NCBI GenBank assembly: GCA_026387335.1
Contig: JAPLLX010000002.1
Span: 13,326-77,325 of the forward strand
DNA: 64,000 bases
Origin: Candidatus Omnitrophota bacterium
GTDB lineage: Bacteria > Omnitrophota > Gorgyraeia > Gygaellales > Profunditerraquicolaceae
Direction: 5' to 3'
Positions 22,435-52,993 of the stretch are shown here, one piece after another. The position numbers and the translations under genes were made by a program. The notes under the pieces were generated by a model. The model did no database searches and was not told where the DNA came from. It saw only the letters and a program-made list of their open reading frames with translations. Numbering within the stretch: position 1 is the stretch's first letter; each line of letters begins with the position of its first letter.

Positions 22435-23382
22435 ATGGCAGGATTAGATTTTGAAAAACCTATTGCTGAATTAGAAAAGAAAATCCAGGAATTAAGGCAT
22501 TTTGTCTCGGATAAAAAGATAGACCTTTCTTCCGAAGTAAAACGCCTGGAAGATAAGCTGGAGCATCTTAAGAAAGATACCTACACTAATCTTTCCGCCT
22601 GGCAGAGGGTGCAGCTTGCCCGCCATCCGCAAAGGCCCTATACTTTAGATTATATCAATCTGTTTATAACGGATTTTATAGAAATACACGGAGACAGGCA
22701 CTTTGCCGATGATAAAGCCATTGTCTGCGGCTTAGGCAAATTGGATAAACACAAAATTGCGGTTATCGGGCATCAAAAGGGCAGGGACACTAAGGAGAAT
22801 CTCCAGCGTAATTTCGGCTGCGCCCATCCGGAAGGATACCGTAAGGCGCTTAGAGTTATGCAGTTGGCGGAAGAATTCAATTTACCCGTGGTGATTTTCA
22901 TTGATACTCCCGGAGCCTATCCGGGCATAGGAGCGGAAGAGCGCGGGCAATCCCAGGCCATCGCGTTTAACTTGAGGGAGATGGCCTCTTTGGCTACGCC
23001 AATACTCTCTATAGTCATAGGAGAAGGCGGCTCAGGCGGAGCTTTAGGGGTGGGAGTAGCTGACCGGGTCTGTATATTAGAAAATTCATATTATTCCGTT
23101 ATATCTCCCGAAGGTTGCGCGGCAATATTATGGAAGGATGGTTCAAAGGCGCCTCAGGCAGCCGAAGTCTTAAAACTGACCGGCGCTGATTTGCTGGCCC
23201 TTAAGATTATTGATGAAGTGATCCCGGAGCCGTTAGGCGGCGCTCACCGGGATGTACAGAAAACAGCCCAGAATTTAAAAGAGGTAATAGTGAGAAACCT
23301 CAAAGAATTAAAAGCAATAGATAAAGAAGAACTCTTAAAATTAAGGTATAAGAAATTCCGCAGTATGGGTGTTGTGGCATGA
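22435..23382 (+). CDS. accA: Acetyl-CoA carboxylase carboxyltransferase alpha subunit
   Basis: Canonical AccA N-terminus [33 protein letters not shown] and a crotonase fold pattern throughout. Confidence 0.9.
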
Positions 23383-23897
23383 TTGAGCAGGAACTATTAT
23401 TATTAGGGTTACTCAGGGAAGGCCCCAAGCACGGCTACGATATCAAGACTAAGATCAAACATATACTCTCCTTATTTGCCGGAGTAGAATTAAAATCCAT
23501 ATATTATCCGTTACGCATACTTGAAAAAAGAGGCCTGGTAGCAAAAAGGACGCTTAAACCGGGGAACAGGCCCAAGCGCATAGTTTACGCCCTGACTCCC
23601 AAAGGCCAAAGCCGCTTTAACGAGCTTCTGGGCAAGAGCCTGCTTAACCTGAAAAGGCCGCAGTTTAGCCTGGATTTAAGCCTCTATTTCTTGCACTACA
23701 TGAAGCCTCAAGCCGCCTGCCGGCGCTTGCGCGCAAGATTGCATATGCTGAATAAAATCTCCCGCGGCCTTGAACAGATGATTAAGAAATCCTCGAAAGA
23801 TAAGACTGTCTCCCTGGGGCGCATACTGGAGCATAACGTAAAGATGCTCAATACCGAATCCCGGTTTATCTCCTGGCTTATTGAGTCGATACATTAA
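23379..23897 (+). CDS. PadR family transcriptional regulator
   Basis: [20 protein letters not shown]...[14 protein letters not shown] is a PadR winged helix. 4-nt overlap with accA. Confidence 0.75.
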
Positions 23898-23988: not shown

Positions 23989-24279
23989 GTGGATTGGGAT
24001 AAGGTTACGCAGGAAAAGCTTAAAATCATTGTCTCTAAGATCCCTGTTTTTCACCGCCATATTACCGAGCAGGCAGTGACTAAAGGGGCGCAAGAGCATG
24101 CCGCCAGAAGGAATTCCGCTAAGATAGAGGAGATAGATGTGATTAACGCCTTCTTCTCGGATGTCCCGGCCGCTTTTTACAGTATGATGGTCAGGCTCCT
24201 GGAGCAAAACGGGTTTGATTATAAAAAATACGGTTTTCCCAAAAATAGGGATGGGAGAACCGTCCCTGGAAAGTTATGA
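23989..24279 (+). CDS. Small PCP_red-like domain protein (protochlorophyllide-reductase BchB C-terminal-like domain)
   Basis: W..V...L...KIPVFHRHITEQAVTKGAQEHAARRNSAKIEEIDVINA resembles my recollection of the PF08369 pattern (W..A...L..iP.F.R......E..A...G...I). GTG start. This is family recall, not a computed hit. Confidence 0.35.
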   Translation: MDWDKVTQEKLKIIVSKIPVFHRHITEQAVTKGAQEHAARRNSAKIEEIDVINAFFSDVPAAFYSMMVRLLEQNGFDYKKYGFPKNRDGRTVPGKL

Positions 24280-25277
24280 AAATAGCAGTAATCGGCGCAG
24301 GCGCCATAGGCAGTTTAGTCGCGGGTTACCTAAAATTAAAAGGCGAAGATGTATATCTTGTCGGCCATAGCGATGCGGTTAAGGCGGTAAGAGAAAACGG
24401 CCTTAAGATTTCCGGAAGACGCGGTGACTTTAAGGTTGAGTTAGGCATCTACGAGATGCTTATCTCCCAGCCGGAACTTTTAATACTGGCGACAAAAACC
24501 CAGGATATTGAGCAGGCGCTCAAAGACAATCTTGGCCTGATTAAAGAGACCGTTGTTTTGACTACGCAGAACGGTATTCAGGCGGAGAAGATAGTTGCCG
24601 GGTTTATCCCTAAAAGTAATATTTTCTCAAGCATAGTGATGTTCGGCGCTACTTATTTAGAGCCGGGTAAAGTTGTGCATAACTTTGAAGGTAGCTGGGT
24701 TTTAGGGAGCATATTCTCTGAGATAACTGACCCCCGGATGCTTTCCTTAAGCCTGGTTTTGAATAAGGCGTTTCCCGCGGTTATCAGTAATGAGATAGCT
24801 GAGATGAAATACCTGAAGATCTTTGTCAATGCCAACAATTGCATCCCGGCTATATTAGGGGTAAGTATGCAGGAAGCCTTTCTCTCTCCCGAAGTGAGCA
24901 AAATAAGCATAGCTATCTGGAAAGAAGGTTTTCAGATAATATCAAAATTAGGGATTAAACTGGCTTCTCTGCCGGGTTTTCCGATAGAAAATATAACCCG
25001 GCTTATTTCCGTACCCAGCGATGAGGCCGCTAAAGTTTTCTCAGGGATCATGAGCAAATTAAGCAAGGATCCGCTCTACGGATCGATTTTACAGAGCATT
25101 AAAAGGGGAAGGTCCTCAGAGATCGATTACATCAACGGAGAATTTGTAAATTTAGCCGATGAGCACGGGCTAAAAGCGGACTTAAACCGAAAGTTAGTTC
25201 AGATGGTGCATGAAGTTGAAAAAACAAAGAGATTTTTTACCAAGGATGAGTTCTTAAGCGCGGTTAAGGATTATTAA
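24276..25277 (+). CDS. ApbA/PanE (ketopantoate reductase) family NAD(P)-dependent oxidoreductase
   Basis: Rossmann N-terminus MKIAVIGAGAIGSLVAGYL and the ApbA_C region SSEIDYINGEFVNLADEHGL. Confidence 0.7.
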   Translation: MKIAVIGAGAIGSLVAGYLKLKGEDVYLVGHSDAVKAVRENGLKISGRRGDFKVELGIYEMLISQPELLILATKTQDIEQALKDNLGLIKETVVLTTQNGIQAEKIVAGFIPKSNIFSSIVMFGATYLEPGKVVHNFEGSWVLGSIFSEITDPRMLSLSLVLNKAFPAVISNEIAEMKYLKIFVNANNCIPAILGVSMQEAFLSPEVSKISIAIWKEGFQIISKLGIKLASLPGFPIENITRLISVPSDEAAKVFSGIMSKLSKDPLYGSILQSIKRGRSSEIDYINGEFVNLADEHGLKADLNRKLVQMVHEVEKTKRFFTKDEFLSAVKDY

Positions 25278-25283
25278 ACTAAA

Positions 25284-25880
25284 ATGTCTGGAGTAAGTTC
25301 ACCTTTCCCAAAACTAAAACTCACGGTTAGCGCAGTTGCGGGCGTTTGTTACCACGGATATAAAGCCGGCGATGAGATTATCCTGGAAGATTTTACGCAT
25401 CCGCCTAAGCATTTTTGCCTGGGGCTGGCCCACGCGTTATTTCCCGTCATATACGCTTTAAGTTTCGGCGCTAAATTCGGCTTCCGCGATAATCAGCGTT
25501 CGCTGCTGGTGACTTGTCCTGACGGAGGGAAGCTGGAATTTAAAGCCGAGATTTTAGACAAAGACGGCAAGGTGGAAACTTTAGCTAAAGACCCGAATCA
25601 TAAATTTAATCCTAAAAAGATGGTCATTGAAGTGGTTAAGGCAAAAGGAAAATGCACATTTGGGTATAAGGTGGGAGATAAATGGGAGACTCTGGGGTTA
25701 AAATGCATACCCGGATTCTGCGGCGCGGCGTTTCATACCGCTTTTCCGGCGCTGTTTGCCTTAAATTTCGGAGCTAAGTTTTTCTTTATGGATAATCCGG
25801 ATGCGATTGATACCGTAACCTGCCCTGATGGAGGGAACATTGTTTTTAAGGTAACGAGAGTAGAAGAGGAGAAAAAATAA
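25284..25880 (+). CDS. Tandem-duplicated small Cys/His-rich domain protein (each repeat about 90 aa; resembles what I recall of the TIGR04076 family)
   Basis: Internal repeat visible by eye: CYHGYKAGDE...HFCLGLAHALFPVIYALSFGAKFGF.DN...VTCPDGGKLEFK, then CTFGYKVGDK...GFCGAAFHTAFPALFALNFGAKFFF.DN...VTCPDGGNIVFK. Confidence 0.4.
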   Translation: MSGVSSPFPKLKLTVSAVAGVCYHGYKAGDEIILEDFTHPPKHFCLGLAHALFPVIYALSFGAKFGFRDNQRSLLVTCPDGGKLEFKAEILDKDGKVETLAKDPNHKFNPKKMVIEVVKAKGKCTFGYKVGDKWETLGLKCIPGFCGAAFHTAFPALFALNFGAKFFFMDNPDAIDTVTCPDGGNIVFKVTRVEEEKK

Positions 25881-25884
25881 TTTT

Positions 25885-27147
25885 ATGAATAAACGTAGAG
25901 TAGTGATTACGGGAATCGGAGTAGTTTCTCCTAATGGTATCGGTAAAGATAAAGTTTATCAGGCGATGTGTAACGGCGTATCCGGGATAAGGCGGGTAGA
26001 TGGTTTTGATGTCTCGGTATTTAATACCAAGATTGCCGCCGAGGTGCGGGATTTTGATCCGTTCAAATTAGGGCTTAACCATGACGAAGCTGTGCGTATG
26101 GATAGATACGTGCAGTTTGGAGTCGTCGCCGGAAATATGGCAATTAAGGATAGCGGGATTGATTTTTCTAAAATTGACCCCGGGCGCGTAGGGGTTTGCC
26201 TGGCCAACGCTATCTGCGGGACAAAATATATGGAAGAAGAATTTGCCTTCGTAACCGACGACGGTAAAAATCCCATTGATCCGTCAAAGGTCAGGCCGGA
26301 CCTCTATGATGCGGCGATGTTTAATACGCCTTCCATTGAATTATCGGCCAAATACCATCTTAAGGGAATATGCAACACTCTTTCTACGGGTTGCACAGCC
26401 GGGACTGACGCGCTCGGATTTGGCCTGGAGACCATCCAGGACGGCGAGGAGGATGTTATGATTTGCGGCGCTGCCGAAGCTCCGATTACGCCGATTACTT
26501 TTGGCGCGTTTGATGTGGTGAATGTTTTATCCTGCCGCAATGATGACCCGCAAGGGTCAAGCCGCCCTTTTGATAATAAGCGTGACGGTTTTGTCTTAAG
26601 CGAAGGCGCCGGGATTTTAATCTTAGAGGAGTTAAACCACGCGTTGAAACGCAACGCCCGCATTTATTGCGAAGTTTTAGGATTCGGCACTAGCTGTAAC
26701 GCCTTTCATATGACTGACCTTCCCGGAGACGGAGACGCTATGACCAACTGTATAACCCTGGCCTTAAAAGATTCCGGGATCAAACCGCGGGAGATAGACT
26801 ATATCAGCGCCCACGGTTCCAGCACCAAGATGAACGATATATTTGAAACTAATGCTTACAAGACAGTTTTTGGCGACTACGCCTATAAGCTTCCCATAAG
26901 CTCGCTTAAATCTATGATCGGCCATCCCTTAGCCGCGGCCAACGCCGTTGAGCTTACCGTATGTTCAATGATTTTTGAGAAGAATATCCTTCCGCCGACC
27001 ATCAACCAGGAAGAAAAAGACCCTTTATGCGACTTGAATTACATTCCGAATAAGGCCATTGAAAAGAAAGTAGACACCATTATTAAAACCAGCTCGGGTT
27101 TTTCCGGGATTCATTCTTCGTTGATATTAAGGAGATATAGTGGATAA
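25885..27147 (+). CDS. Beta-ketoacyl synthase, catalytically complete (KS-alpha / FabF-like; Cys-His-His-Lys present)
   Basis: Active-site Cys in LSTGCTAGTDALG, His1 in AFHMTD, His2 in ISAHGSST, Lys in LKSMIGHPLAAANA (GHxxGAAG-like). Confidence 0.85.
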   Translation: MNKRRVVITGIGVVSPNGIGKDKVYQAMCNGVSGIRRVDGFDVSVFNTKIAAEVRDFDPFKLGLNHDEAVRMDRYVQFGVVAGNMAIKDSGIDFSKIDPGRVGVCLANAICGTKYMEEEFAFVTDDGKNPIDPSKVRPDLYDAAMFNTPSIELSAKYHLKGICNTLSTGCTAGTDALGFGLETIQDGEEDVMICGAAEAPITPITFGAFDVVNVLSCRNDDPQGSSRPFDNKRDGFVLSEGAGILILEELNHALKRNARIYCEVLGFGTSCNAFHMTDLPGDGDAMTNCITLALKDSGIKPREIDYISAHGSSTKMNDIFETNAYKTVFGDYAYKLPISSLKSMIGHPLAAANAVELTVCSMIFEKNILPPTINQEEKDPLCDLNYIPNKAIEKKVDTIIKTSSGFSGIHSSLILRRYSG

Positions 27148-28366
27148 AATAGCGGTTACAGGCATAGGCATAGTTAGCCCTTCAGGGATAAATAAAAGGC
27201 AATTTTGGGCGAATATAAAAGCCGGCCGCTCTTTTGTCAAAGAGATTACCCGCTTTGACGCTTCCAAATACCCATCACGTATCGCCGGTCAAATTGACGA
27301 ATTAAATAAATACAGCAATATTTCCGAGAGGCTGCTGAAAAAAATCGACGCCTTTTCGCACATGGCCCTGATCGCCTCGGAATTAGCGCTGCAGGACGCC
27401 GGAATTGATATAAAAAATGAAGACCCGAACTTAGTCGGCATATTTTTAGGCAACGCTATCGGCGGCTGGCTTTATGCCGAGACTGAGCTACGCGATTTGT
27501 ATATTGAAGGCCGCGAGGGAGTATCGCCCTATATGGCTTCAGCTTGGTTTCCCGCCGCGCCGCAAGGCCAGGTATCCATTTATTACGGTATCAAAGGTTT
27601 TTCTAAAACAGTAGTCGCGGACAGGGCCAGTTCCTTGATGGCTTTAGGTTACGCCCGAAAAGTCTTAAATAAAAATAAACTTAATATGATTTTATCCGGC
27701 GGAATGGAAGCGCCGGTTACGCCCTACGCTCTTTTATGCTGCAGCACTTACGGAGCTCTTTCCAAAAATAATGCTCGTCCCCAAGAAGCTTACCGGCCTT
27801 TTGATAAAAAGCGCGACGGTTGCGTGATTGGCGAAGGCGCCGGAATCGTGGTTATGGAGAGCATCGCGCGCGCGGCTAAAAGAGGGGTAAAGCCGTTGGC
27901 TTATATTTCAGGATACGCCGCGACCTGCGACGGGCTAGACCGGATTAATTGCGCCAGCGACGGTAAGGAGTTAGCCCGGGCGATTACCTTAGCGCTGGCT
28001 GACGCAAAAACTAACGCCGGCGAAATTGATTACATAAGCTTAGACGGACTGGCCCTGGATTTATGGGATAACTCCGAGTTAAGCGCGATAAAAAGTATTT
28101 TTAAAGAAAGGGCAAAGGATATTCCGCTGAGTTGCCCTAAATCCATGTTTGGGAATTTGCTGGGAGCCTCGGGAGTAGTGGATATGATTACTACTATTTT
28201 GGCAATGGAGAATAATCTTATACCGGTTACCTTAAATTTGGAGGAGCCCAGCGTTAAAGGGTTTAATTATGTTACTAAAGAAGCAAAGGAACATAAAATA
28301 AATAAGGCCTTGGTAATCTCGCGCGGAAGAGGCGGGATAAATTCGGTCTTAGTAGTGGAAAAGTAA
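27140..28366 (+). CDS. KS-beta / chain-length-factor-like ketosynthase paralog lacking the catalytic Cys and both His
   Basis: KS fold (N-terminus MDKIAVTGIGIVSP). The Cys position reads VVADRASSL, His1 is YISLDGLAL, His2 is KSMFGNLLGASG (His to Asn). 8-nt overlap with the KS-alpha gene. Confidence 0.7.
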   Translation: MDKIAVTGIGIVSPSGINKRQFWANIKAGRSFVKEITRFDASKYPSRIAGQIDELNKYSNISERLLKKIDAFSHMALIASELALQDAGIDIKNEDPNLVGIFLGNAIGGWLYAETELRDLYIEGREGVSPYMASAWFPAAPQGQVSIYYGIKGFSKTVVADRASSLMALGYARKVLNKNKLNMILSGGMEAPVTPYALLCCSTYGALSKNNARPQEAYRPFDKKRDGCVIGEGAGIVVMESIARAAKRGVKPLAYISGYAATCDGLDRINCASDGKELARAITLALADAKTNAGEIDYISLDGLALDLWDNSELSAIKSIFKERAKDIPLSCPKSMFGNLLGASGVVDMITTILAMENNLIPVTLNLEEPSVKGFNYVTKEAKEHKINKALVISRGRGGINSVLVVEK

Positions 28367-28384
28367 AAAGTTAGAGGAGGAATT

Positions 28385-29845
28385 ATGAAGATTTTATTTG
28401 TTATGCCGAAAGTCGGAGCCTGGGCAACGCACGGAATACACCGTTCACCAAATCAGCTCTACGCCCATTGGGCAGCGTACGCGCGCGAAAGAGGGTATGA
28501 GGACGTAGCGGTTATAGACGGTAAGGCTGACCAGATACCTATGGAGCAGTTGGTTGAGCAGGTAAAGCAGAAGAATCCCGATATCGTGGTCATGGGCGAA
28601 CAGCTGCACGGTTATGGCGGCTACGGAGTTTTACGCCATTTTAAGGATGCCGCCGCCGGTATAAAAAAAGCGCTTCCTAAAACAAAAATTATTCTGGGCG
28701 GGTTATGGTATTCGGCAATGCCCGTACCGACATTAGAGGAAAATCCCGCTGTAGATTTTGTAGTGATGGGCGAAGAGGAGTCTTTTGGGGACCTGATTGA
28801 AGCAATAGATAAAAATAAGCCTCTTAAAGACGTGGGTGGAGTAACTTCGCGCATTGATGGCCAAATCGTTATGGGGCCGCATAAACCGTTGCTGGAAGAT
28901 TTGGATAAGTTACCCCTGCCGGCTTATGATTTGTTTCCTATGGATAAATATGTGGGTCACACTTATTGGAAGCCTTTTGTGGATATGGTTACTTCCCGCG
29001 GATGTCCATCGGCTTGCACTTTTTGTTATGAATGGGACCAGTTTGACCCCCGCTCTCCGTCGGATTTCCTGAAGTGGCGGGCTAAATCCCCGGAAAGAGT
29101 TATGGAAGAACTTAATCTTCTACACAGAAAATACGGGGTTAAAGTCGTGGTTATTCAGGATGATAATTTCAATGTCGATCCGGCGAGGGTGAAAAAATTC
29201 TGCGAGCTGAAGAAAGCGTCTAATAATCCGATTAAATGGGTTTCTCTGGGCCGGGCGATAGATTGGGTTAATTGCGAATCCATCCTGCCCTTAATGAAGG
29301 AAAACGGTTTATTTATGGGCGTTTTCGGCATTGAGGTTACCACTCAGTCAGAGCTTAAGAAAATCGCTAAAGGTATCACCATTGATCAGATCAAGAAAAC
29401 TATAGAGATGTTCCGTAAAAACGATATCGCCATTGTCGCCGATATTATGATGGGTTTTGATTATGATACCGAAGAAATTGTTAAGCAGCGTTTTGAGTTT
29501 ACTGACCAGGTGGACCCGGATGTCCTCTGGGTGGGTTATGTTACTCCCGCTCCGAATTCACCAATGTGGAGGATTGCTTTAAAGAAAAAGTGGATGGACC
29601 CTAAGAAGGTAGATTTTAGCCAATGGGACTTTTTGCATCCGGTAATTCCTACGGACCATCTTTCCACAGAAGACTTAGGGCGCCTGGGTTCATGGTGTAT
29701 GCGGGAATTTTTCTCCAAGCCCGGCCGCATTAATAGGATCATGGAGAGCAATTTTGATCCTTTGGCCAAGCTTTGTTTCAAGGATGTTATGGATGGTATT
29801 AACAAGTGGGAAGCAGCCGCGACCAAGGGCGAAGTGCAGATATAA
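28385..29845 (+). CDS. B12-binding radical SAM enzyme (class B rSAM)
   Basis: N-terminal cobalamin-binding-like Rossmann domain (MKILFVMP...IVVMG...IILGG), then the radical SAM cluster motif CPSACTFC (CxxxCxxC). 486 aa. RBS AGAGGAGG. Confidence 0.85.
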   Translation: MKILFVMPKVGAWATHGIHRSPNQLYAHWAAYARERGYEDVAVIDGKADQIPMEQLVEQVKQKNPDIVVMGEQLHGYGGYGVLRHFKDAAAGIKKALPKTKIILGGLWYSAMPVPTLEENPAVDFVVMGEEESFGDLIEAIDKNKPLKDVGGVTSRIDGQIVMGPHKPLLEDLDKLPLPAYDLFPMDKYVGHTYWKPFVDMVTSRGCPSACTFCYEWDQFDPRSPSDFLKWRAKSPERVMEELNLLHRKYGVKVVVIQDDNFNVDPARVKKFCELKKASNNPIKWVSLGRAIDWVNCESILPLMKENGLFMGVFGIEVTTQSELKKIAKGITIDQIKKTIEMFRKNDIAIVADIMMGFDYDTEEIVKQRFEFTDQVDPDVLWVGYVTPAPNSPMWRIALKKKWMDPKKVDFSQWDFLHPVIPTDHLSTEDLGRLGSWCMREFFSKPGRINRIMESNFDPLAKLCFKDVMDGINKWEAAATKGEVQI

Positions 29846-29860
29846 GCTAGCGGAGGAAAG

Positions 29861-30097
29861 ATGGAGACAAAACAGAAAATTAAAGAAGTGCTGGTTGACC
29901 TGCTTAAGGTAAAGCCTGAAGAATTAAAAGATGCTGTTGCCTTGCAAGAGAGTATCGGCGTAGATTCTACCGAAATAGTGGAATCGGTTATCGCCCTGGA
30001 AAAGGCGTTTGGGGTGAAACTTAGCCCGAAAGAGATTACCAAGTCTTCCAGTATAGACGATATCGCGATAGTTGTGCAGTCCAAACTTAAAGCCTAA
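29861..30097 (+). CDS. Acyl carrier protein
   Basis: 78 aa; phosphopantetheine-attachment motif GVDSTEIVESVIALEKAFG (DS- Ser). Confidence 0.8.
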   Translation: METKQKIKEVLVDLLKVKPEELKDAVALQESIGVDSTEIVESVIALEKAFGVKLSPKEITKSSSIDDIAIVVQSKLKA

Positions 30098-30895
30098 ATG
30101 AAGATAATTGACTTAAGCCTTCCTATAGACGATAAGGCGTTTGAAGTCCACAAGGTAGCCATTGAACGGGTGACCCATAAGGCGGGAGTGGAGAAATTTA
30201 ACCGCGTGATTATGGGGAAAACTCTCTCCGGGAGGATCAAGTATCTCCTCGGTAAGCGCATACTTAAGAAAGAAGACCTGCCTGACGAGGAATTTTTATC
30301 GCTGGAAATAGTGCATTCTCCTGTTCACATCGGCACCCACCTGGATTACTCATTCCATTACGGCTCAAAATCAGAGGGTAGGCCTTCCAAGACCGCGGAA
30401 GATATCCCGCTGGAATATTGTTATCAGGATGGCGTTAAGCTGGATTTGACCCACAAAAAACCCAACGAAACAATTTCATCAACTGACATTGAAGCGGCGC
30501 TCTCAAAAATCAATTATAAATTAAAACCTTGGGATATTGTTTTCCTATTTACCGGAGCGGATAAGTTTTACGGCTCCCCGCAGTATTTCTCGGATTATCC
30601 GGGAATTGATATTTCGGCGATAGATTATCTTCTAGATAGAGGGATAAAGATTTTTGGCGTAGATACTATGGGCATAGACAGGCCATACAGGTTTATGTTA
30701 AAAGAGTTCTTAGAGAAAAAAGACCCTAAGGCGCTCTACCCGGCGCATTTCTACGGCAGGAAAAGAGAGTTTATCCATATTGAAAGGCTGGCGAATTTAG
30801 AAAAACTTCCGGCTTTCGGATTTAAGGTAATTTGTTTTCCGGTAAAGATTAAACAGACCGGAGCAGCATGGTCGAGAGTAGTTGCCATATTATAA
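30098..30895 (+). CDS. Putative cyclase family protein (PF04199, kynurenine-formamidase-like metal-dependent cyclase/hydrolase)
   Basis: Signature HSPVHIGTHLDYSFHYG (HxGTHxDxPxH-type). The start abuts the ACP stop. Confidence 0.7.
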   Translation: MKIIDLSLPIDDKAFEVHKVAIERVTHKAGVEKFNRVIMGKTLSGRIKYLLGKRILKKEDLPDEEFLSLEIVHSPVHIGTHLDYSFHYGSKSEGRPSKTAEDIPLEYCYQDGVKLDLTHKKPNETISSTDIEAALSKINYKLKPWDIVFLFTGADKFYGSPQYFSDYPGIDISAIDYLLDRGIKIFGVDTMGIDRPYRFMLKEFLEKKDPKALYPAHFYGRKREFIHIERLANLEKLPAFGFKVICFPVKIKQTGAAWSRVVAIL

Positions 30896-30906
30896 GGGAG
30901 GTTAAG

Positions 30907-31347
30907 ATGGGACATACTTGTAATTCAATTATAATTAACGCGCCGTATGATCTGGTTTTTGATATTTCTAACGATATACCGCGTTGGACTGAATTATTCG
31001 GAAGTGAATACAAGAAAGCGGAGATTGTAAAAAGAGAAGAGAATAAGATTACTTTTCGCCTGACCGATGATGAGGATAAATCCTGGATTTCCTGGAGGTT
31101 ATTGTTTAAGGATAAATTTTTTACTTATTCCGAAAGGCAGGAGCCGAAATTTCCGTTTAAATATATGAAGATCGTCTGGCTCTATACGCAAAAGCCGGAA
31201 GGAACAGCGCTAACCTGGATACAACATTTTGAAATGGACGACAAAGCTAAATTTAACGATGAGCAGGTAGAAGGTTTTATCAACAAGCATTCCAAAGACA
31301 ATCTTTTAATTTTTAAGAATGTGATTGAAAAGGCAGCAGCAAAGTAA
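30907..31347 (+). CDS. SRPBCC / Polyketide_cyc2-like small protein (aromatase/cyclase-like lipid-binding fold)
   Basis: About 145 aa; SIIINAPYDLVFDISNDIPRWTELF is a START/Bet v1-like N-terminal beta-strand pattern. GGGAGG RBS before the ATG at 30907 (the ORF track's 30868 start overlaps the previous gene). Confidence 0.45.
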   Translation: MGHTCNSIIINAPYDLVFDISNDIPRWTELFGSEYKKAEIVKREENKITFRLTDDEDKSWISWRLLFKDKFFTYSERQEPKFPFKYMKIVWLYTQKPEGTALTWIQHFEMDDKAKFNDEQVEGFINKHSKDNLLIFKNVIEKAAAK

Positions 31348-31363
31348 TTTTAGGAGGTAACCC

Positions 31364-32140
31364 ATGAATCAGGAATTAAAAGGTAAGGTAGCGATTGTAA
31401 CAGGAGCCAGCCGGGGTATTGGTAAGGCCCTGGCCTGCACCGCGGCAAGTCTTGGGATTAATTTAGCTATTGCCGCCCGCGGCGAAGGACCGTTAAAAGA
31501 AACAGCTGATGAGATCGCCAAGAAATACAAGGTAGATGTATTAGCTGTTCCTTGTGATGTCACTAAATTAGAAGATTTAGAGAATTTGGTGAACAAAGCC
31601 AAGGAAAAATTTGGTAAAATCGATATTTTGATCAATAACGCCGGAGTTTCATCCCAATATCCATTCCAGGAGCAGCCGATTGAGGATTTTGAAAGGCTGG
31701 CCCATACGAATTATTTAGGATATGTGCGCCTGATCCGTTTGGTTATTAACGATATGATTAAGAATAAGTCCGGGGCGATAATCAATATGGTTTCCGGCTC
31801 AACCCTTTGCGACCCGCTACCAAGGAATTTTATCGTCTATAGTTCGCTTAAAGTCGGTTTACGCGCTTTTTCCAAGGGCCTTTTCTGGGAACTACGCGAC
31901 CACGGTATAAAAGTAACTTCGATATTGCCCGGAGTTACGGACACTGATCTGACCGGTAAATTAAAAGAGATTACCAGCCAAACTTCCAGGCTGATGAGCA
32001 CCGAGGCAATTGAAGACGCGGTGAGGTTTGCTCTGACCGTGCCAGCGAATGTCTGTCCGTTAGAGATTGCCGTAATTAATCAACAGACACCCTGGACCGC
32101 GCCGGTAATACCATTTGAGCAGAAGCATCCCGGGAAATAA
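31364..32140 (+). CDS. Short-chain dehydrogenase/reductase (ketoreductase-like SDR)
   Basis: TGASRGIG cofactor motif, NNAG, catalytic S...YxxxK (YSSLK). Confidence 0.85.
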   Translation: MNQELKGKVAIVTGASRGIGKALACTAASLGINLAIAARGEGPLKETADEIAKKYKVDVLAVPCDVTKLEDLENLVNKAKEKFGKIDILINNAGVSSQYPFQEQPIEDFERLAHTNYLGYVRLIRLVINDMIKNKSGAIINMVSGSTLCDPLPRNFIVYSSLKVGLRAFSKGLFWELRDHGIKVTSILPGVTDTDLTGKLKEITSQTSRLMSTEAIEDAVRFALTVPANVCPLEIAVINQQTPWTAPVIPFEQKHPGK

Positions 32141-32142
32141 AA

Positions 32143-32171
32143 ACACCCGGCCCTATCGGATGGGCCGGTGT
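32143..32171. repeat. Conserved hairpin D copy 1 (ACACCCGGCCC-TATCGGAT-GGGCCGGTGT), possible operon-end terminator
   Basis: 7-bp GC stem with an 8-nt loop immediately after the SDR stop. A covarying copy is at 62428-62455. Confidence 0.5.
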
Positions 32172-32199
32172 TGTCCTGGTGGACAAAAGGAGAGAACTG

Positions 32200-32805
32200 A
32201 TGAAAAGAATGATTTTGGCGGTAGTACTATTCTTAAGCGTTACAGGAATATGCTTAGCGGCTGAGAATTTATTGATTGATGATTTTGAGGTAGCTGTCTC
32301 CGGAGGCCTGGAAGGAACAGTTGACTTTGGCGCTGGTAACGGTTCATCCGTAAATGTAACCGCAGCTACGGATATTAAAAATACGGGAAAGCAGTCTTTA
32401 AAAGTTGACTATGATGCTGTCCCCGGAGGATATATCTATGTTGCCAAAGGTAAGGGCCTAGATGCCAAGAATACTGAGTGGCTAGTTAAGCCTGAAGATA
32501 TTAAGTGGGAAGATTATAAGGCGTTCTCATTCTATATGTATGGCACGGATTCTAAAGCTAGGATAGCTTTTGACATTAAAGACAACGGAGATGAGCTTTG
32601 GCGTTTTGTGGTCGAGGATAATTTTAATGGCTGGAAGCAGATTGTCTGCGACTTTGATAAATTCTTAGTCCGTGACGACTGGCAGCCTAACAGTTCCGAT
32701 AAAAACGCGAAAATTGATTTTCCGATAAAGATCTTTCAGCTTGAGCCGTTGCCTGCGTCAAAAGGCACGCTTTATTTTGATACCGTAGAATTGGTTAAAA
32801 AATGA
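32200..32805 (+). CDS. Secreted beta-sandwich protein (carbohydrate-binding-module-like), hypothetical
   Basis: Signal peptide MKRMILAVVLFLSVTGICLA after an AGGAGA RBS. The rest is Gly/Asp/aromatic-rich, consistent with a beta-sandwich. No confident family. Confidence 0.3.
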   Translation: MKRMILAVVLFLSVTGICLAAENLLIDDFEVAVSGGLEGTVDFGAGNGSSVNVTAATDIKNTGKQSLKVDYDAVPGGYIYVAKGKGLDAKNTEWLVKPEDIKWEDYKAFSFYMYGTDSKARIAFDIKDNGDELWRFVVEDNFNGWKQIVCDFDKFLVRDDWQPNSSDKNAKIDFPIKIFQLEPLPASKGTLYFDTVELVKK

Positions 32806-33197
32806 TGAACAAACTGGATTTAAAAAATTTGAAAAAACGCTACCTCATCTGGTTTTATAAAACTACCAGAGAGGCGCTGGATAAAATTGAACGCAAATTT
32901 ACGCAAAGCGAAATCGACCGCTTTATCTTAAAAGAGCTTAAAAGAGCTGATAAGGAGAAAGCCGCCGAATCTTTTATCGCCCAATTTGAGGAGTATATCC
33001 GGAAAAAAGAACAGGATGGGTTGAGCTTAAAATTTGAGAATAAAAAGCCAAAGCCGCATTATGTATTCCTGGTTTTAAAGCTGGAGGCGATCCAGAAGGC
33101 TATCGTGAAGGAATTAGGGAAAAAAGCGCTGGAAGAGATAAAGTTACTTTATGAAATAGAGATGACTGAGCGTATATTAAGGAATACGGAACACTAA
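32802..33197 (+). CDS. Hypothetical protein (charged, helical)
   Basis: ORF with 4-nt overlap to its neighbour; no motif recognised. Confidence 0.25.
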   Translation: MMNKLDLKNLKKRYLIWFYKTTREALDKIERKFTQSEIDRFILKELKRADKEKAAESFIAQFEEYIRKKEQDGLSLKFENKKPKPHYVFLVLKLEAIQKAIVKELGKKALEEIKLLYEIEMTERILRNTEH

Positions 33198-33198
33198 A

Positions 33199-34107
33199 AT
33201 GATTATTGACAGCCATAGCCATTGGTTGCCGGAAGGCATAATCAACAACGCTCATTTTTATCATAAGGGTTGGGGTGATATTGAGGCTCAACTTAAGATG
33301 ATGGATGAGGCAGGAATTGATAAGGCGGTTTTGTCATATCCGACAACCGACGCGCACCTAAAGTTGGGCAGTATATCCGAAGTCGTGCGCATATTTAATG
33401 ACCATGTCGGCAAAATCATTCAAATTTATCCGGATAGGTTTATCGGCGCGGCGATCCTCCCGATAGATCACCAACCGGATATGCTTAAAGAGCTAAAACG
33501 CGCGACCGAAGAATTAGGTTTTAAGGCCGTGTCTCTAGCGACCAGTTACGCCGGAATTTATTTGGACGACGCAAGATTCCTGGAAGTATACAAGATCGCG
33601 CAAAGCCAAAACTTGCCGATTTTTGTACACTCACAGATTGTAAAACCGATAGGCAGCGAGCGCGTAGAGGACCCGTTGCTTACGCCGGTGATTGAATATG
33701 TCTTTGATACGACGATGTGCATAGGCAAACTCTTAATGGCGGATATTTTACGCGATTATAAAGTGAAATTTATCTTTGGTTACTTTGGCGGAGTAACGCC
33801 ATTCCTGGCGAATAGATTTGACGCGACCTATCAGATGCTGCGAGGAATGAATTTTGTTAAGGATTTAGGAGCTAACCCCAGCGAATACTTAAAAAATATT
33901 TATGTGGATACCAGCGGAGATAAGACGCAAGCGAATTTCTCGGCGGCGCTGGAATTATTAGGGCCCAAGCATATTTTATGGGGGAGCGACTGGCCGGCGA
34001 AGAAAGACATCGCTACAGGAATCCAAGCAGTCAAAAACTTAGCAATATCCGATGCGGATAAAAATAATATTTTAGGCGGTAATTTAGCTAGTATATTAGC
34101 TCTTTAA
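33199..34107 (+). CDS. Amidohydrolase-2 family (PF04909) metal-dependent hydrolase/decarboxylase
   Basis: N-terminal IIDSHSHWLPEG (HxH metal ligands); TIM-barrel length; the ...WGSDWP Asp near the C-terminus. Confidence 0.65.
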   Translation: MIIDSHSHWLPEGIINNAHFYHKGWGDIEAQLKMMDEAGIDKAVLSYPTTDAHLKLGSISEVVRIFNDHVGKIIQIYPDRFIGAAILPIDHQPDMLKELKRATEELGFKAVSLATSYAGIYLDDARFLEVYKIAQSQNLPIFVHSQIVKPIGSERVEDPLLTPVIEYVFDTTMCIGKLLMADILRDYKVKFIFGYFGGVTPFLANRFDATYQMLRGMNFVKDLGANPSEYLKNIYVDTSGDKTQANFSAALELLGPKHILWGSDWPAKKDIATGIQAVKNLAISDADKNNILGGNLASILAL

Positions 34108-35145: not shown

Positions 35146-35895
35146 ATGCAGATGGTTAAGGATATACATTTAACAGGTAAGGACTTGACGGATATGGTGC
35201 AGTTGAGGCCACAGGACGTAGGCAAATACGCGATTGTCCCCGGCCCAAAAGACAGGCTGGAGACCTTAATCAAGAAAATTGAAAATCCGGTGCGGAATTT
35301 TTCATTTATGGAATACACGATGTACACCGGGACATTTGAAGGGATAAAGCTTAGCGCGATTAACGGCGGAAGGTTCTCCACCGATACTTCCATCACGACT
35401 GAGGTAATGTGCAACGCGAAAATTGAGAATATAATCCGCGTAGGAACCGCCGGCAGCCTGGACGAGAATATAAAAGTAGGGGATTTATTCGTGGTAGATG
35501 AAGTAATCCGCGGCGATGGAGTTACCCCTTATTATGTAAATAAAGATTTTAAAACTGTCGCGGATAAGAAAATTTCCGATACGCTTTATCAGGTTGGTAA
35601 AGATATGGGCTTGACTATCCATCGCGGCAAGGCCTGGACAACGGATGCGCTCTTACGCGAGACCAGAGAAATCGTGGAAGCCAAGCGTAAAGAGGGAGCA
35701 AGAGTAGTAGATATGGTTTCTTCAACCTTATTAACTATCGCGCAAACTTATAATATCAAGGCCGGTTCAATTTTAGCGGTCAGTGATAATGTCGTAACCG
35801 GTGAAATGGGCTTTATGAATCCTTTATATTATATGGCGGAGTCTAATATCTTAAAGATAGCCTTGGAAGCAGTTAAAAAATTAGAGGGAAAATGA
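35146..35895 (+). CDS. PNP/UDP-family nucleoside phosphorylase (candidate 5'-deoxyadenosine / MTA phosphorylase)
   Basis: Uridine/purine phosphorylase fold signatures: ...YTGTFEGIKLSAINGG...RVGTAGSL...GDLFVVDEVIRGDG. Confidence 0.7.
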   Translation: MQMVKDIHLTGKDLTDMVQLRPQDVGKYAIVPGPKDRLETLIKKIENPVRNFSFMEYTMYTGTFEGIKLSAINGGRFSTDTSITTEVMCNAKIENIIRVGTAGSLDENIKVGDLFVVDEVIRGDGVTPYYVNKDFKTVADKKISDTLYQVGKDMGLTIHRGKAWTTDALLRETREIVEAKRKEGARVVDMVSSTLLTIAQTYNIKAGSILAVSDNVVTGEMGFMNPLYYMAESNILKIALEAVKKLEGK

Positions 35896-36818
35896 AATTT
35901 TCTCCATTATTTTGGCCGATCCAGTTTAAGAACGGCATAATTTATATTCTTGACGAAACTCTTCTGCCCCAGAAACTTGCTTATATAAAGGCCAGGAATT
36001 ATAAAGAGGCCTGTCGCGCTATCAAAGAGATGAAGACTCGGGCTGTAGGCCAAGTGCTCCTGGTGATGTATATTTTTCTGCAGTTGGTTAAACAAAAAAA
36101 ACAAAAAGATTTAGTTAAGGTTGCTAAAGTCGTAAATGCTACTCGTCCGACTCTCTCTTTTAAATTTTTAACCGATATGGTTTTAGGTTGGGCAAAGAGC
36201 AGGGTCCCTTTAGAAAAATGCATTCTGGGATTCCTGGAAGGCTTGAAATGCAGCCGTATCAGGCAGGCAGAAGAGGCCTCCAAATTAATTAAAAACGGGG
36301 ATGTAATACTTACGCATTGCAATATCAGCGGGCTGATGCCTTTAATAGCTGAATTTTGCGCTAGAGAAGGCAAAGGAGTAAAATTTTTCGCGACGGAAAC
36401 CCGGCCATATCTACAAGGTTCGCGCTTAACTGCCTGGGAATTAAAACGGCAGGGTTTTGACGTGACCTTGATTACCGACGGGATGGTGGCCGCGGTTATG
36501 TCTCAAGGGAAAGTGAATAAGGTTATTGTCGGAGCCGACCATTTAGCCCAAAACGGCGACATTGCCAATAAAATCGGCACTTACGCTATAGCGGTGTTAG
36601 CCCGGCATTTTAAGATACCTTTTTATGTTTTATGCCCGCCGGCTTCAGGGTTAAAAAGCGGGAAAGATATTAAGATCGAGATACGTCCGGATAAAGAAAT
36701 GTTAGAGTATCAGGGCTTGCGCCTGGCGCCCAAAGGGGTAAAAGGATATTACCCGGCATTTGATGTTACTCCTAATGGATTAATTACTAAACATATACCT
36801 TTGGAGATTAAAAGATGA
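35892..36818 (+). CDS. MtnA/eIF-2B family sugar-phosphate isomerase (5-(methylthio/deoxy)ribose-1-phosphate isomerase-like)
   Basis: eIF-2B alpha/beta/delta family pattern: ...VIVGADHLAQNGDIANKIGTYAIAVLARHFKIPFYV. Confidence 0.7.
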   Translation: MKFSPLFWPIQFKNGIIYILDETLLPQKLAYIKARNYKEACRAIKEMKTRAVGQVLLVMYIFLQLVKQKKQKDLVKVAKVVNATRPTLSFKFLTDMVLGWAKSRVPLEKCILGFLEGLKCSRIRQAEEASKLIKNGDVILTHCNISGLMPLIAEFCAREGKGVKFFATETRPYLQGSRLTAWELKRQGFDVTLITDGMVAAVMSQGKVNKVIVGADHLAQNGDIANKIGTYAIAVLARHFKIPFYVLCPPASGLKSGKDIKIEIRPDKEMLEYQGLRLAPKGVKGYYPAFDVTPNGLITKHIPLEIKR

Positions 36819-37816
36819 TTTTCGGTAAAGAGCGAAAGATAAAAAATGAAATAATTAAAGTTGGGAAACGGCTTTATCAAACCGGCCTGACTGTGGCTAA
36901 ATCCGGGAACTTAAGCGCAAGGCTGGATAATGAGAATATCCTTATCACGGCTACCGGGACATCTCTGGGAAATCTAAAATATAAAGATATCGTGAAAGTT
37001 AATTGGCAATCCGGCGAAACACGCGGTGGAATCAAGCCCAGTTCGGAGCTGCCTTTACATATTTTGGTTTATAAAAACTTCGGCGCCCGGGCAGTTATCC
37101 ACGCTCACCCGTCTTTAATCAACGGGTATTTCGCGGTTACCTCGGATTTAAAGGCTTTAACTTTTGAGACTAAATTTTATCTTGGCAATGTTCCGGTAAT
37201 CGAACAGGATACGCCTACTGTGACTAAGCCTGAAGCGGTAATAAGCGCGTTAAAGGTAAATAATCTGGTCGTCCTTAAGAATCACGGCATAGTCGCTATC
37301 GCGGATAAATTTTGCGACGGCCTGAATCTGGCCGAAGCGTTAGAAGAGGCTGTGCGCTCTCTGGCAGTTGCCAGAATATTTGATAAAAGCGTGCTTGATG
37401 ATTTGGATAAAGCGCTAAAGCAGGAGCTTACGCAGAACGCCCGCTTACCCATGTTTTCTAAAGACCATATCCAGGCGATTGTAGATCTGGTAAATAAGGA
37501 TGAATTCATCGCTCAAAAAGGGAGAGAGTTGGATTTGACGCTGAAACTTGCCATAAAATTAGACGGGAGCGATAAGGCCTATAAATTTAATTTTGAAAAA
37601 GGTAAAATCATAAGATTGGATTTTGACGCTGACGCGCCATTTGTAATTTCAGCTCCTGCCGAGGTTTGGGAACAGGTTTTTTTAGGAAAACTTGATTGTT
37701 TCGTGGCGGTTACACAGGGAAAGATGAAGCTATCCGGCCAGTTGGGGCAGCTCTCTAAGTGGTATGTGCCTTTTACCCGGCTGTTCGGGATATTTAAGGA
37801 AGTAAAAATAAAATGA
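36815..37816 (+). CDS. Class II aldolase/adducin-family enzyme fused to a C-terminal SCP2-like domain (MtnB/fuculose-P-aldolase-like)
   Basis: The N-domain GLTVAKSGNLSARLD and HAHPS metal-binding His are typical of class II aldolases. The C-terminal about 100 aa ...FNFEKGKIIRLDFDA...GKMKLSGQLG resembles SCP2 sterol-carrier domains. Confidence 0.65.
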   Translation: MIFGKERKIKNEIIKVGKRLYQTGLTVAKSGNLSARLDNENILITATGTSLGNLKYKDIVKVNWQSGETRGGIKPSSELPLHILVYKNFGARAVIHAHPSLINGYFAVTSDLKALTFETKFYLGNVPVIEQDTPTVTKPEAVISALKVNNLVVLKNHGIVAIADKFCDGLNLAEALEEAVRSLAVARIFDKSVLDDLDKALKQELTQNARLPMFSKDHIQAIVDLVNKDEFIAQKGRELDLTLKLAIKLDGSDKAYKFNFEKGKIIRLDFDADAPFVISAPAEVWEQVFLGKLDCFVAVTQGKMKLSGQLGQLSKWYVPFTRLFGIFKEVKIK

Positions 37817-39300
37817 TCCAAAGTTATCCGCTGTACATAAATGGAAAATTTATCGAAACCAAAGAAAAGCAGAGCATTATTAATCCTTCAACTGGGAAGG
37901 TGATCGCTGAGGCCTCGCTTGCCTCCTTAAAAGAGGTAGAGTTAGCGTTAGATAGCGCGCGTTCCGCTTTTGATAAAGGAGAGTGGTCGCGGTTACCATC
38001 GGAGCAGCGAAAGAAATTTATTTCCCGGATTGCCCAGGGTATCTTAGATAATGCGGGAGAGCTAGCGGAATTAGAGAGCGTTAATACCGGAAAGCCGATC
38101 AAGGAAACTACTTTTATGGATATTCCTTCAGCGGCCAAGGCCTTTGAGTACGCGGCTAATAATTTTGAAAGTTTCTTAACGGCTGAAGATTTAAAAATAT
38201 CTGAAGAGGCAAAAGCAAATTTACGCCGCGAGCCAGTCGGGGTGGTAGTTTTGATCATCCCCTGGAATTACCCGCTTTTAATCGCCTGTTGGAAGTTAGC
38301 CTCGGCTTTAGCCGCCGGTAACACTGTGGTATTAAAACCTTCCAGCCTTACTCCTTTAAGCGCCCTTAAATTGGCGCAGATCCTCCATGAGGCAGCTCTT
38401 CCTGCGGGAGTAGTAAATGTGATTAACGGAAGCGGCCCGAAAATCGGCGAAGTCCTATGTAGCGATAAAAGAGTGGATATGGTCTCTTTTACCGGAAGCA
38501 ATGAGACAGGCAGGCAGATCTTAGAGTATTCCTCCGCAAATATTAAGAAATCGATTATGGAGTTGGGTGGTAAAAGCGCGAGTTTAATTTTTAGCGATTG
38601 CGATATAGATACCGTGGTAAATAGTTCGCTTTGCTCAATATTCCTCAACCAGGGCCAGATGTGCACAGCTATGTCGCGTATATTTATCCAGGATAAAATA
38701 TATGATAAATTTGTGGCTAGTTTCGTCCAAAAGGCCAAAGCCTTAAAGCTGGGGGTGGCCCAAGCCCATGAGACTCAAATGGGGCCGTTAATCAGCGATA
38801 GCCAGCGGAAAAAAGTTATTGCCTATATTGAAAAAGCCCGGGCCGAGGGCGCGAAAATATTATGCGGCGGAAAAATTCCGCAAAATCCGGAACTAAAAAA
38901 CGGGTATTTCTTTGAGCCAACGGTTATGGCTAATGTCAGCGCGCATATGCATATTTTTAGAGAAGAGGTATTTGGCCCGGTTGCTATTGTGGGTAAGTTT
39001 TCCGACGCTAACCAAGCCGTAGAGTTGGCTAACGCCAGCGATTTTGGCCTGGCCTCCTGCATCTGGACTAAAGACACTGCTTTTGCCCAAAATTTAGCCG
39101 AACAAATTAATTCCGGGGTCGTCTGGATAAACACTTACGGAATGTTTTATAATCAGCTTCCTTACGGCGGGTTTAAGAGAAGCGGTTTTGGCAAGGAATT
39201 GGGCAGGGAGGGGTTCTTAGAATACACCCGGCTTAAGAATATAGTTATTGACCAGTCACTAGACAATAAGCCCTTGGTTAGCCACTGGTATGGATTTTAA
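37813..39300 (+). CDS. NAD(P)+ aldehyde dehydrogenase
   Basis: Catalytic Cys in NQGQMCTAMSRIF, general-base Glu in MELGGKSA, GSxxTG cofactor motif FTGSNETG. Confidence 0.9.
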   Translation: MIQSYPLYINGKFIETKEKQSIINPSTGKVIAEASLASLKEVELALDSARSAFDKGEWSRLPSEQRKKFISRIAQGILDNAGELAELESVNTGKPIKETTFMDIPSAAKAFEYAANNFESFLTAEDLKISEEAKANLRREPVGVVVLIIPWNYPLLIACWKLASALAAGNTVVLKPSSLTPLSALKLAQILHEAALPAGVVNVINGSGPKIGEVLCSDKRVDMVSFTGSNETGRQILEYSSANIKKSIMELGGKSASLIFSDCDIDTVVNSSLCSIFLNQGQMCTAMSRIFIQDKIYDKFVASFVQKAKALKLGVAQAHETQMGPLISDSQRKKVIAYIEKARAEGAKILCGGKIPQNPELKNGYFFEPTVMANVSAHMHIFREEVFGPVAIVGKFSDANQAVELANASDFGLASCIWTKDTAFAQNLAEQINSGVVWINTYGMFYNQLPYGGFKRSGFGKELGREGFLEYTRLKNIVIDQSLDNKPLVSHWYGF

Positions 39301-42700: not shown

Positions 42701-42712
42701 GCCGCTTCTCTT

Positions 42713-45510: not shown

Positions 45511-45513
45511 GCT

Positions 45514-52666: not shown

Positions 52667-52749
52667 TGCCGGGAGAGGGAGTTGAACCCACATGAGCTTG
52701 CGCTCAACAGCTTTTGAGGCTGCCGCGTATGCCATTTCGCCATCCCGGC
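52667..52749 (-). tRNA. tRNA-Leu (anticodon CAA), class II with long variable arm
   Basis: Reverse complement folds as GCCGGGA / 3-bp D stem / anticodon stem GCAGC-loop CTCAAAA-GCTGT / variable stem-loop TGAGC-GCAA-GCTCA / T arm GTGGG-TTCAACT-CCCTC (one U-U mismatch) / TCCCGGC-A. No encoded CCA. Confidence 0.65.
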
Positions 52750-52816
52750 GATATTTTAATAGTTGACGCCAGTTATTTTATATTCTAAAATAGCAAAGGT
52801 CAATAGATATAATTAC

Positions 52817-52892
52817 GGGGCTGTAGCTCAGCTGGGAGAGCACTTGCATGGCATGCAAGGGGTCAGGAGTTCAATCCTCCTCAGCTCCACCA
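52817..52892 (+). tRNA. tRNA-Ala (anticodon GGC) with G3:U70 identity pair and encoded CCA
   Basis: GGGGCTG-TA-GCTC-AGCTGGGA-GAGC-A-CTTGC-ATGGCAT-GCAAG-GGGTC-AGGAG-TTCAATC-CTCCT-CAGCTCC-ACCA; the anticodon-loop centre is GGC. Confidence 0.85.
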
Positions 52893-52916
52893 AATTTTTG
52901 CGACAAGCAAAATTAA

Positions 52917-52939: not shown

Positions 52940-52993
52940 ATGGTTAGAAGAGCTATTGACGCTCCACTTCCAGAGAGGTATAATTTAAAGGCT

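Follow-up and report, generated by a model that had tools for sequence, protein, structure and literature searches.

The gene at positions 27140-28366 of the window examined here, a stretch of 64,000 nucleotides (nt) from a Candidatus Omnitrophota bacterium (contig JAPLLX010000002.1, positions 13,326 to 77,325), very likely encodes the KS-beta subunit, of the chain-length factor (CLF) type, of a polyketide synthase (PKS) of type II; we put the probability at about 85%. What is documented directly is sequence homology, loss of the catalytic triad, conservation, synteny and operon content. From the comparison with known ketosynthase (KS) pairs we infer heterodimer formation with the adjacent catalytic subunit (KS-alpha), a role in the substrate tunnel and the product class of the system.

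Triad loss and relationship to chain-length factors

KS-beta contains both ketosynthase domains (PF00109, 3.2e-44; PF02801, 9.7e-25). The position of the nucleophilic Cys is occupied by Arg162 (VVADRASS, codon 27623-27625), that of the first catalytic His (His1) by Asp302 (YISLDGLA, codon 28043-28045) and that of the second (His2) by Asn339 (MFGNLLG, codon 28154-28156), and the active-site Lys is retained (K334). These assignments agreed among three independent alignments, and the codons were checked directly. KS-beta was aligned with the Listeria and B. subtilis FabF proteins by phmmer, with its upstream paralog KS-alpha by BLASTP (31% identity), and by MAFFT in a set consisting of the window pair, the actinorhodin (act) KS/CLF, a Streptomyces plasmid KS/CLF pair, a Bacillus plasmid pair and three FabFs. 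The original prediction, made by eye from the sequence, that this protein has lost Cys and both His was thereby confirmed, and no Cys or His was found at the catalytic positions in any of the alignments. Its description of the first position as merely devoid of Cys needed refinement: the Cys is gone, and the residue is Arg, not the Gln of canonical CLFs. As had also been predicted, KS-alpha retains the full triad (Cys170, codon 26392-26394; His310, 26812-26814; His347, 26923-26925). In the MAFFT alignment the triad columns of the act CLF read Gln/Asp/Arg (Q/D/R), so that it likewise lacks Cys and both His.

Several lines of evidence favor placing KS-beta with the CLFs. It matched the act CLF (1tqy_B) at 1.6e-68, and Streptomyces plasmid genes annotated as 'ketosynthase chain-length factor' with 36% identity and a score of 273 bits (tblastn), comparable to or above the FabFs. 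Four features common to KS-beta and the act CLF were found in neither FabF nor KS-alpha: an AWF motif, whose Trp is W136 in KS-beta and W134 in the act CLF, a Pro-Lys pair before the His2 position, an (A/S)RG motif close to the C-terminus, and an Asp in place of His1. A neighbor-joining (NJ) tree built from numpy distances with 200 bootstraps separated FabF from all PKS ketosynthases in 100% of the replicates, grouped the window KS-alpha with the act KS-alpha at 92%, kept the KS-alpha clade separate (74-92%) and placed KS-beta in the CLF-side group. Judging from these motifs and the placement in the tree, KS-beta would therefore be neither a recent duplicate of FabF nor a recent copy of KS-alpha. 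The earlier argument against a simple FabF duplication was thus upheld, both by the separation of FabF in the tree and by the conservation of the Arg-Asp-Asn (R-D-N) triad described below.

The best match of KS-alpha in the PDB was the act KS-alpha (1tqy_A, 3e-110) and the second-best was chain 6smo_B, a PKS_KS domain protein that is presumably AntD (5e-108); both ranked above every FabF. KS-alpha also has a 6-7-residue insertion in common with the act KS-alpha and other KS-alphas, which FabFs and CLFs lack in the MAFFT alignment. The GTG start codon of KS-beta (27140) lies inside the KS-alpha gene, whose TAA stop codon occupies 27145-27147, and 5 nt upstream of this GTG there is an AAGGAG ribosome-binding site. 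These coordinates bear out the 8-nt overlap noted in the original prediction, and stoichiometric co-translation of the two subunits may follow from it. KS-alpha adjoins KS-beta in every related locus whose contig extends that far. A 1-nt or 8-nt overlap occurs in about 52 of 76 loci, and most of the other junctions are short gaps, of up to ~100 nt, with one of 293 nt. Because the overlap varies among relatives, tight coupling is common but not obligatory, and the exact 8-nt overlap is not conserved.

An AlphaFold2 monomer model of KS-beta was of high overall confidence (pLDDT 90.2, pTM 0.92) and adopted the KAS-II fold. Confidence was low only at residues 108-135 (window 27461-27544), a helix with the gate-equivalent residues; pLDDT fell below 50 at residues 108-112 and 133-135, and the stretch includes W110, A113, L117 and S134. 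Such a profile fits an interface element that becomes ordered only against its partner. In the act system, F109, T112, F116, W194 and G195 of KS-beta and F140 and L143 of KS-alpha have been proposed to determine chain length (PMC4383371). According to the MAFFT alignment, their equivalents in the window are W110, A113, L117, Y196 and A197 of KS-beta and Y141 and A144 of KS-alpha. W110, L117, W136 and Y196 were invariant in all 239 members of the wider family, and A113 was nearly so. When compared with the gatekeeper table of PMC6638757, the pattern A/L/Y/W (act positions 112/116/194/109) was closer to the oxytetracycline-type G/L/W/F than to WhiE, and its small/Leu/aromatic/aromatic arrangement resembles C18-C20 systems. 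A product chain length of roughly C16-C20 is therefore hinted at with low confidence, because the gatekeeper rules fail for AntE, the working CLF of the Photorhabdus anthraquinone PKS, which lacks both Gln161 (Asp instead) and the mapped gatekeepers (PMC6638757).

Five observations weigh against the assignment of KS-beta as a CLF. First, by raw score the top solved matches of KS-beta were FabFs (271 bits vs 234 for the act CLF). Second, monophyly of all CLF-like sequences, i.e. the group in which the NJ tree placed KS-beta, received a bootstrap value of only 32%. Third, the PDB fold search returned TM scores of 0.89-0.93 to FabF as well as to 1tqy_A/B; since this range cannot tell a CLF from a FabF, it was not used for classification. 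Fourth, the canonical CLF Gln is absent, and Arg162 stands in its place in 79 of 79 loci. Fifth, a PDB search with a short-chain dehydrogenase/reductase (SDR) of the same operon gave generic matches only and no specific match to a polyketide C9-ketoreductase. In NCBIfam, no CLF-specific model matched KS-beta, and the best match was the FabF equivalog below its cutoff (357 vs 494 bits), a score that shows only that KS-beta is not a bona fide FabF.

Arginine at the position of the CLF glutamine

The canonical CLF Gln161 has been linked to decarboxylative chain initiation (PMC3691225; PMC6638757), a role proposed by Bisang 1999 as cited in these two papers. Since this Gln is absent from KS-beta, its proposed role is not transferable to it. 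AntE (PMC6638757) and, in S2 Table of that paper, WhiE, both accepted CLFs, are listed with Asp at the Gln161 position; thus Gln at the Cys position appears to define the canonical actinomycete subgroup rather than the whole CLF class.

In a full HMMER search of 1.84 billion representatives, an xDR(A/V)S motif was very frequent in the nearest standalone relatives of KS-beta (36-56% identity). In exact look-ups, the triad read R-E-H in Clostridium beijerinckii and C. puniceum, R-H-H in Ktedonobacter racemifer, R-D-H in Archangium, and R-D-N in Paenibacillus and in metagenome-assembled genomes (MAGs) of Deltaproteobacteria; the Bacillus plasmid homolog also has Arg at the Cys position. Its recurrence in non-actinobacterial relatives argues that Arg at the CLF Gln position is a recurrent non-canonical state and therefore not a unique event. 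Asp or Glu occupied the His1 position in 8 of 13 Arg-type representatives, and this co-occurrence suggests a buried salt bridge in place of the Cys-His pair. The literature search turned up no paper in which Arg is named at the position of this Gln. The replacement of Gln by an invariant Arg in a large family bears on the debated role of this residue in chain initiation.

The Arg-type CLFs of non-actinomycetes are the nearest standalone relatives of KS-beta at 38-46% identity (44% for the clostridial and Bacillus plasmid proteins). Clostrubin is produced by C. beijerinckii and C. puniceum, and its CLF, ClrB, has been counted among the 'ancestral' type II PKSs (PMC7693217); the protein of these two species recovered here (P0132) is probably ClrB, as judged from organism and gene context rather than from an accession match. 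The C. beijerinckii locus encodes KS, KS-beta, a PF04199 cyclase, an SRPBCC protein, Amidohydro_2 and an acyl carrier protein (ACP), and the Bacillus plasmid homolog also lies in a type II PKS-like cluster. The clusters of the Arg-type relatives resemble that of the window in their PF04199 cyclase, SRPBCC cyclase and ACP and, in Clostridium, also in Amidohydro_2. In contrast to the R-D-N of the window family, the Arg-type CLFs of C. beijerinckii/C. puniceum, Ktedonobacter, Archangium, Paenibacillus and the Bacillus plasmid, all with xDRAS, mostly keep His2 (REH, RHH, RDH). The genes for a B12-binding radical S-adenosylmethionine (SAM) protein, an ApbA-type reductase and a TIGR04076-family protein, which are present in the window, were absent from all three related clusters examined.

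The act KS/CLF (ActI-ORF1/ORF2, 1TQY) resembles the window pair in having a full-length inactive partner directly downstream of a Cys-His-His KS-alpha, followed by an ACP, and the act CLF shares with KS-beta, besides the motifs given above, an aromatic residue at W194 (here Y196). The two differ at the Cys position (Arg162 vs Gln161), at His2 (Asn vs Arg) and at the gate (W/A/L in KS-beta vs F/T/F), and their identity is only ~34-36%. Unlike the act system, the window comes from an anaerobic, uncultured member of the Omnitrophota and has the B12-radical SAM gene between CLF and ACP. AntD/AntE (6SMO) is a Gram-negative type II PKS whose CLF, like KS-beta, lacks Gln161. In AntE, the C-terminal third is divergent (PMC6638757), whereas KS-beta aligns end to end with FabF and the act CLF, and the AntE chain of 6SMO was not among the 60 best of 150 solved matches of KS-beta.

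We propose a mechanism modeled on the actinorhodin KS/CLF paradigm. KS-beta would fold as a complete ketosynthase and pair with the adjacent, translationally coupled KS-alpha. All of the chemistry would be performed by KS-alpha, in which Cys170 would be acylated and His310 and His347 would assist decarboxylative Claisen condensation with malonyl-ACP; lacking the Cys as well as both His, KS-beta should be unable to be acylated or to decarboxylate by the canonical route. Instead, where the two subunits meet, it would complete the substrate tunnel by supplying its floor and its second wall (W110/A113/L117/Y196), thereby setting chain length and stabilizing KS-alpha. A buried polar plug or salt bridge, probably formed by Arg162 with Asp161 and/or Asp302, would take the place of the old active site.

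Alternatively, Arg162, Asp302 and Asn339 could constitute a re-tooled active site, with KS-beta acting, for example, as a malonyl-ACP decarboxylase ('chain initiation factor') whose Arg binds the carboxylate or as a cyclization factor like AmcG. In its favor, R162 is kept across very divergent relatives while the His positions drift (RDN, REH, RDH, RHH, RAN), R-D-N is invariant within the family, and there are precedents in the cispentacin protein AmcG (PMC10698177) and in the link of the CLF Gln to decarboxylation (PMC3691225). We nevertheless regard it as improbable. Both His needed for canonical decarboxylation are gone, as they are in the act CLF (Q/D/R), working CLFs reported with Asp at this position (AntE and WhiE; PMC6638757) indicate that the position is tolerant, and, whereas KS-beta is full-length, AmcG is missing KS motifs and some of the fold (PMC10698177).

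The operon and the type of system

KS-alpha and KS-beta lie in a co-directional block that spans 23989-34107, from a DUF2621-like gene to Amidohydrolase_2 (Table 1). The arrangement of the KS pair itself is that of a textbook type II PKS, and the operon encodes a dedicated ACP and aromatase/cyclases, as do aromatic type II PKS clusters. The phosphopantetheine Ser of the ACP is Ser36 in GVDSTE (29966-29968). Among solved structures, the SRPBCC protein was closest to the polyketide aromatase/cyclases WhiE and TcmN (2e-26 to 4e-23), and a PF04199 cyclase was also found in the C. beijerinckii and Bacillus plasmid clusters. Two small genes separate the SDR from Amidohydrolase_2, whose likeness is to LigW, ACMSD and gamma-resorcylate decarboxylase. 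Among the operon genes examined, none was identified as a dehydratase or an enoyl reductase. In the proposed pathway, the TcmN/WhiE-type aromatase/cyclase would act with the PF04199 cyclase to fold the poly-beta-ketone made by the KS pair, and further processing by the SDR, the decarboxylase-like amidohydrolase and the B12-radical SAM protein would lead to an aromatic product.

Table 1. Features of the KS-alpha/KS-beta operon in the window (aa, amino acids)
Feature	Position	Strand	Details
Small conserved protein	23989..24279	+	Weak DUF2621 match; the syntenic block starts with this gene
ApbA/PanE-family NAD(P)H ketoreductase	24276..25277	+	Syntenic with the PKS genes
Tandem TIGR04076-family protein	25284..25880	+	Directly upstream of KS-alpha in all relatives
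KS-alpha, catalytic ketosynthase	25885..27147	+	420 aa; Cys170, His310, Lys342, His347
Translational-coupling junction	27129..27147	+	AAGGAG 27129-27134, GTG 27140, TAA 27145-27147
KS-beta, CLF-type subunit (probable)	27140..28366	+	GTG start; 408 aa; PF00109 + PF02801
B12-binding radical SAM protein, BchE/HpnJ-like	28385..29845	+	Between KS-beta and ACP
Acyl carrier protein	29861..30097	+	78 aa; PF00550 1.4e-09
PF04199 'cyclase' family protein	30098..30895	+	
SRPBCC polyketide aromatase/cyclase, TcmN/WhiE type	30868..31347	+	3tvr 2e-26; TcmN 2rer 4e-23
SDR, candidate ketoreductase	31364..32140	+	
Amidohydrolase_2	33199..34107	+	Resembles non-oxidative aromatic-acid decarboxylases; syntenic in relatives

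The original prediction had assigned the pair to the KS-alpha/KS-beta heterodimers of type II PKS, aryl-polyene and ladderane-type systems. Its type II PKS part stood, in the form of an aromatic-like system, and the other two parts did not. In ApeO/ApeC and AmcF/AmcG, as in the window, a catalytic KS is accompanied by a non-catalytic, KS-derived partner. ApeC keeps only one thiolase half (PMC8358021), and AmcG, the 'cyclization factor' of cispentacin biosynthesis, lacks KS motifs and some secondary-structure elements (PMC10698177), whereas KS-beta has both halves (PF00109 + PF02801) and a TM score of 0.9 to FabF. We thus rejected an aryl-polyene assignment, for which the half-length ApeC contrasts with the full 408 aa of KS-beta, and a cispentacin-type assignment on the basis of the missing KS motifs in AmcG. 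A ladderane assignment was rejected because the radical SAM protein scored 71.3 bits against TIGR04072 (rSAM_ladder_B12), for which the cutoff is 360, and because the cyclases are of the aromatic-PKS type.

More generally, the pair could belong to a system making reduced chains, such as a ladderane-like lipid, an aryl polyene or the product of a highly reducing type II PKS. Rules in the style of antiSMASH would call a KS pair with a radical SAM protein 'ladderane', and antiSMASH 'ladderane' biosynthetic gene cluster calls have been reported in Omnitrophota MAGs (PMC9902471); moreover, a B12-radical SAM gene lies inside the minimal PKS operon, and both an SDR and an ApbA-type reductase are present. 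We consider this explanation very unlikely. BchE (208 bits) and HpnJ (159 bits), although both below their cutoffs, scored better than TIGR04072 with the radical SAM protein, neither a dehydratase nor an enoyl reductase was identified in the operon genes examined, the SRPBCC protein matched WhiE/TcmN at 1e-23 to 1e-26, KS-beta is full-length where ApeC-type CLFs are half-length (PMC8358021), and the nearest named relatives sit in aromatic PKS clusters. A PDB search with the radical SAM protein returned generic matches only, by which its reaction was not assigned.

Some details of the operon differ among relatives. The TIGR04076-family protein of the window is a tandem duplication of 198 aa with a median identity of 84% across relatives, and a Nitrospirota relative (L085, 3224-3861) has two separate genes of ~90 aa in its place. 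The mechanically called start of the SRPBCC reading frame (30868) overlaps the preceding cyclase gene; because the orthologs begin at MGHTCNS, the true start is probably 30907. In most relatives a gene for a 372-aa MFS transporter stands between SRPBCC and SDR (e.g. L012, 14328-15446), which the window lacks, its SRPBCC and SDR genes being 16 nt apart (31347-31364).

Conservation and genomic context

A scan of one genome per species identified 158 loci encoding relatives. All of the close homologs of KS-beta came from Candidatus Omnitrophota MAGs, and nearly all of the best 80 loci were so titled, the others being 12 'Planctomycetales' and one 'bacterium'. The records titled 'uncultured Planctomycetales' or 'Planctomycetales bacterium' (L010, L011, L014, L017, L018, L025 and others) contain the same syntenic locus at ~80% identity to Omnitrophota records, which looks like a labeling issue rather than transfer. 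An earlier list of phyla with KS-CLF hits includes Candidatus Omnitrophica (PMC10132072).

The KS-beta reading frame was intact, at 77-91% identity, in 80 species-level genomes, and between the DUF2621-like gene and the amidohydrolase the genes kept their order wherever the contigs of the relatives allowed. The R-D-N triad was present in all 79 extracted syntenic orthologs and in 223 of 239 members of the wider family, which extends down to ~52% identity and includes 'Deltaproteobacteria' and Nitrospirota MAGs; 71 columns were invariant across the 239 sequences. Median identities to the window were 80% for KS-beta, 82% for KS-alpha, 91.5% for the radical SAM protein, 89% for the SDR and 79.5% for accA, showing that KS-beta is conserved on par with accA across at least 80 species-level genomes. 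This pattern points to purifying selection on a gene that is maintained, not decaying. That KS-beta is a functionless, decaying duplicate of FabF or KS-alpha, as the loss of all three catalytic residues might suggest, can be dismissed for practical purposes in view of the intact frame, the invariant R-D-N and other columns, the accA-like conservation and the distance from FabF in the tree.

The family appears to be undescribed with respect to its R-D-N triad, the B12-radical SAM gene between CLF and ACP, the ApbA and TIGR04076 partners and its housekeeping-level conservation in a core-genome neighborhood. The flanking genes are accA upstream, followed by genes for type IV pilus/type II secretion, L,D-transpeptidase, leucyl-tRNA synthetase, MurJ and UvrC. 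Conservation at this level and a location among housekeeping genes are unusual for a biosynthetic gene cluster and suggest a core physiological product. As a speculative extension, which we hold to be possible but rather doubtful, the anaerobic Omnitrophota might have, with this pair at its core, an aromatic polyketide pathway that belongs to the core genome and is inherited vertically, making a physiological product (for example a redox-active quinone-like molecule or pigment) and not an accessory antibiotic, with the BchE-like B12-radical SAM protein replacing O2-dependent tailoring and the Arg-type, His-less KS-beta representing an old, constrained form of CLF. If so, Desulfobacterota-like ('Deltaproteobacteria') and Nitrospirota MAGs would contain relatives of the pathway. 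The aspects worth pursuing are the conservation and the anaerobic tailoring set, and this compact minimal PKS from an anaerobe, with an E. coli-like GC content (~45%), is a candidate for heterologous reconstitution.

The clusters of the Deltaproteobacteria and Nitrospirota relatives contain one or two additional aldehyde:ferredoxin oxidoreductase (AFOR) genes (L083, 3851-5824 and 13177-15156; L085, 376-2277), which the window lacks. In addition, L085 encodes an FMN reductase, and L083 encodes a flavoprotein of the DAO/amine-oxidase family; neither is found in the window.

Directly upstream of the PKS block are accA and a PadR-family regulator (22435-23897). Synteny of both extends to many relatives, and they might locally connect the block to malonyl-CoA supply or to regulation. 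Downstream, the region 35146-39300 encodes a PNP_UDP_1 phosphorylase, an IF-2B/MtnA-like isomerase, a class II aldolase and an aldehyde dehydrogenase, and this set stays linked to the PKS/radical SAM genes despite rearranged order (L083, 17447-19220; L086, 1-4018). It may represent a dihydroxyacetone phosphate (DHAP)-shunt-type salvage of 5'-deoxyadenosine/methylthioadenosine (MTA), which radical SAM enzymes release as by-product. Farther downstream, 40498-46641 contains an efflux set consisting of a TolC-like OEP, an HlyD-family adaptor, two ABC ATPases, one of them with a DrrA-type C-terminal domain, and two ABC-2 permeases, which could serve as the exporter in this genome without the MFS gene. 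A search of the whole window against Rfam returned only two tRNA genes (RF00005), which are divergent (52667-52749 on the minus strand and 52817-52889 on the plus strand). The second of them is overlapped by the mechanically called reading frame 52763-53839, whose real start is probably further downstream.

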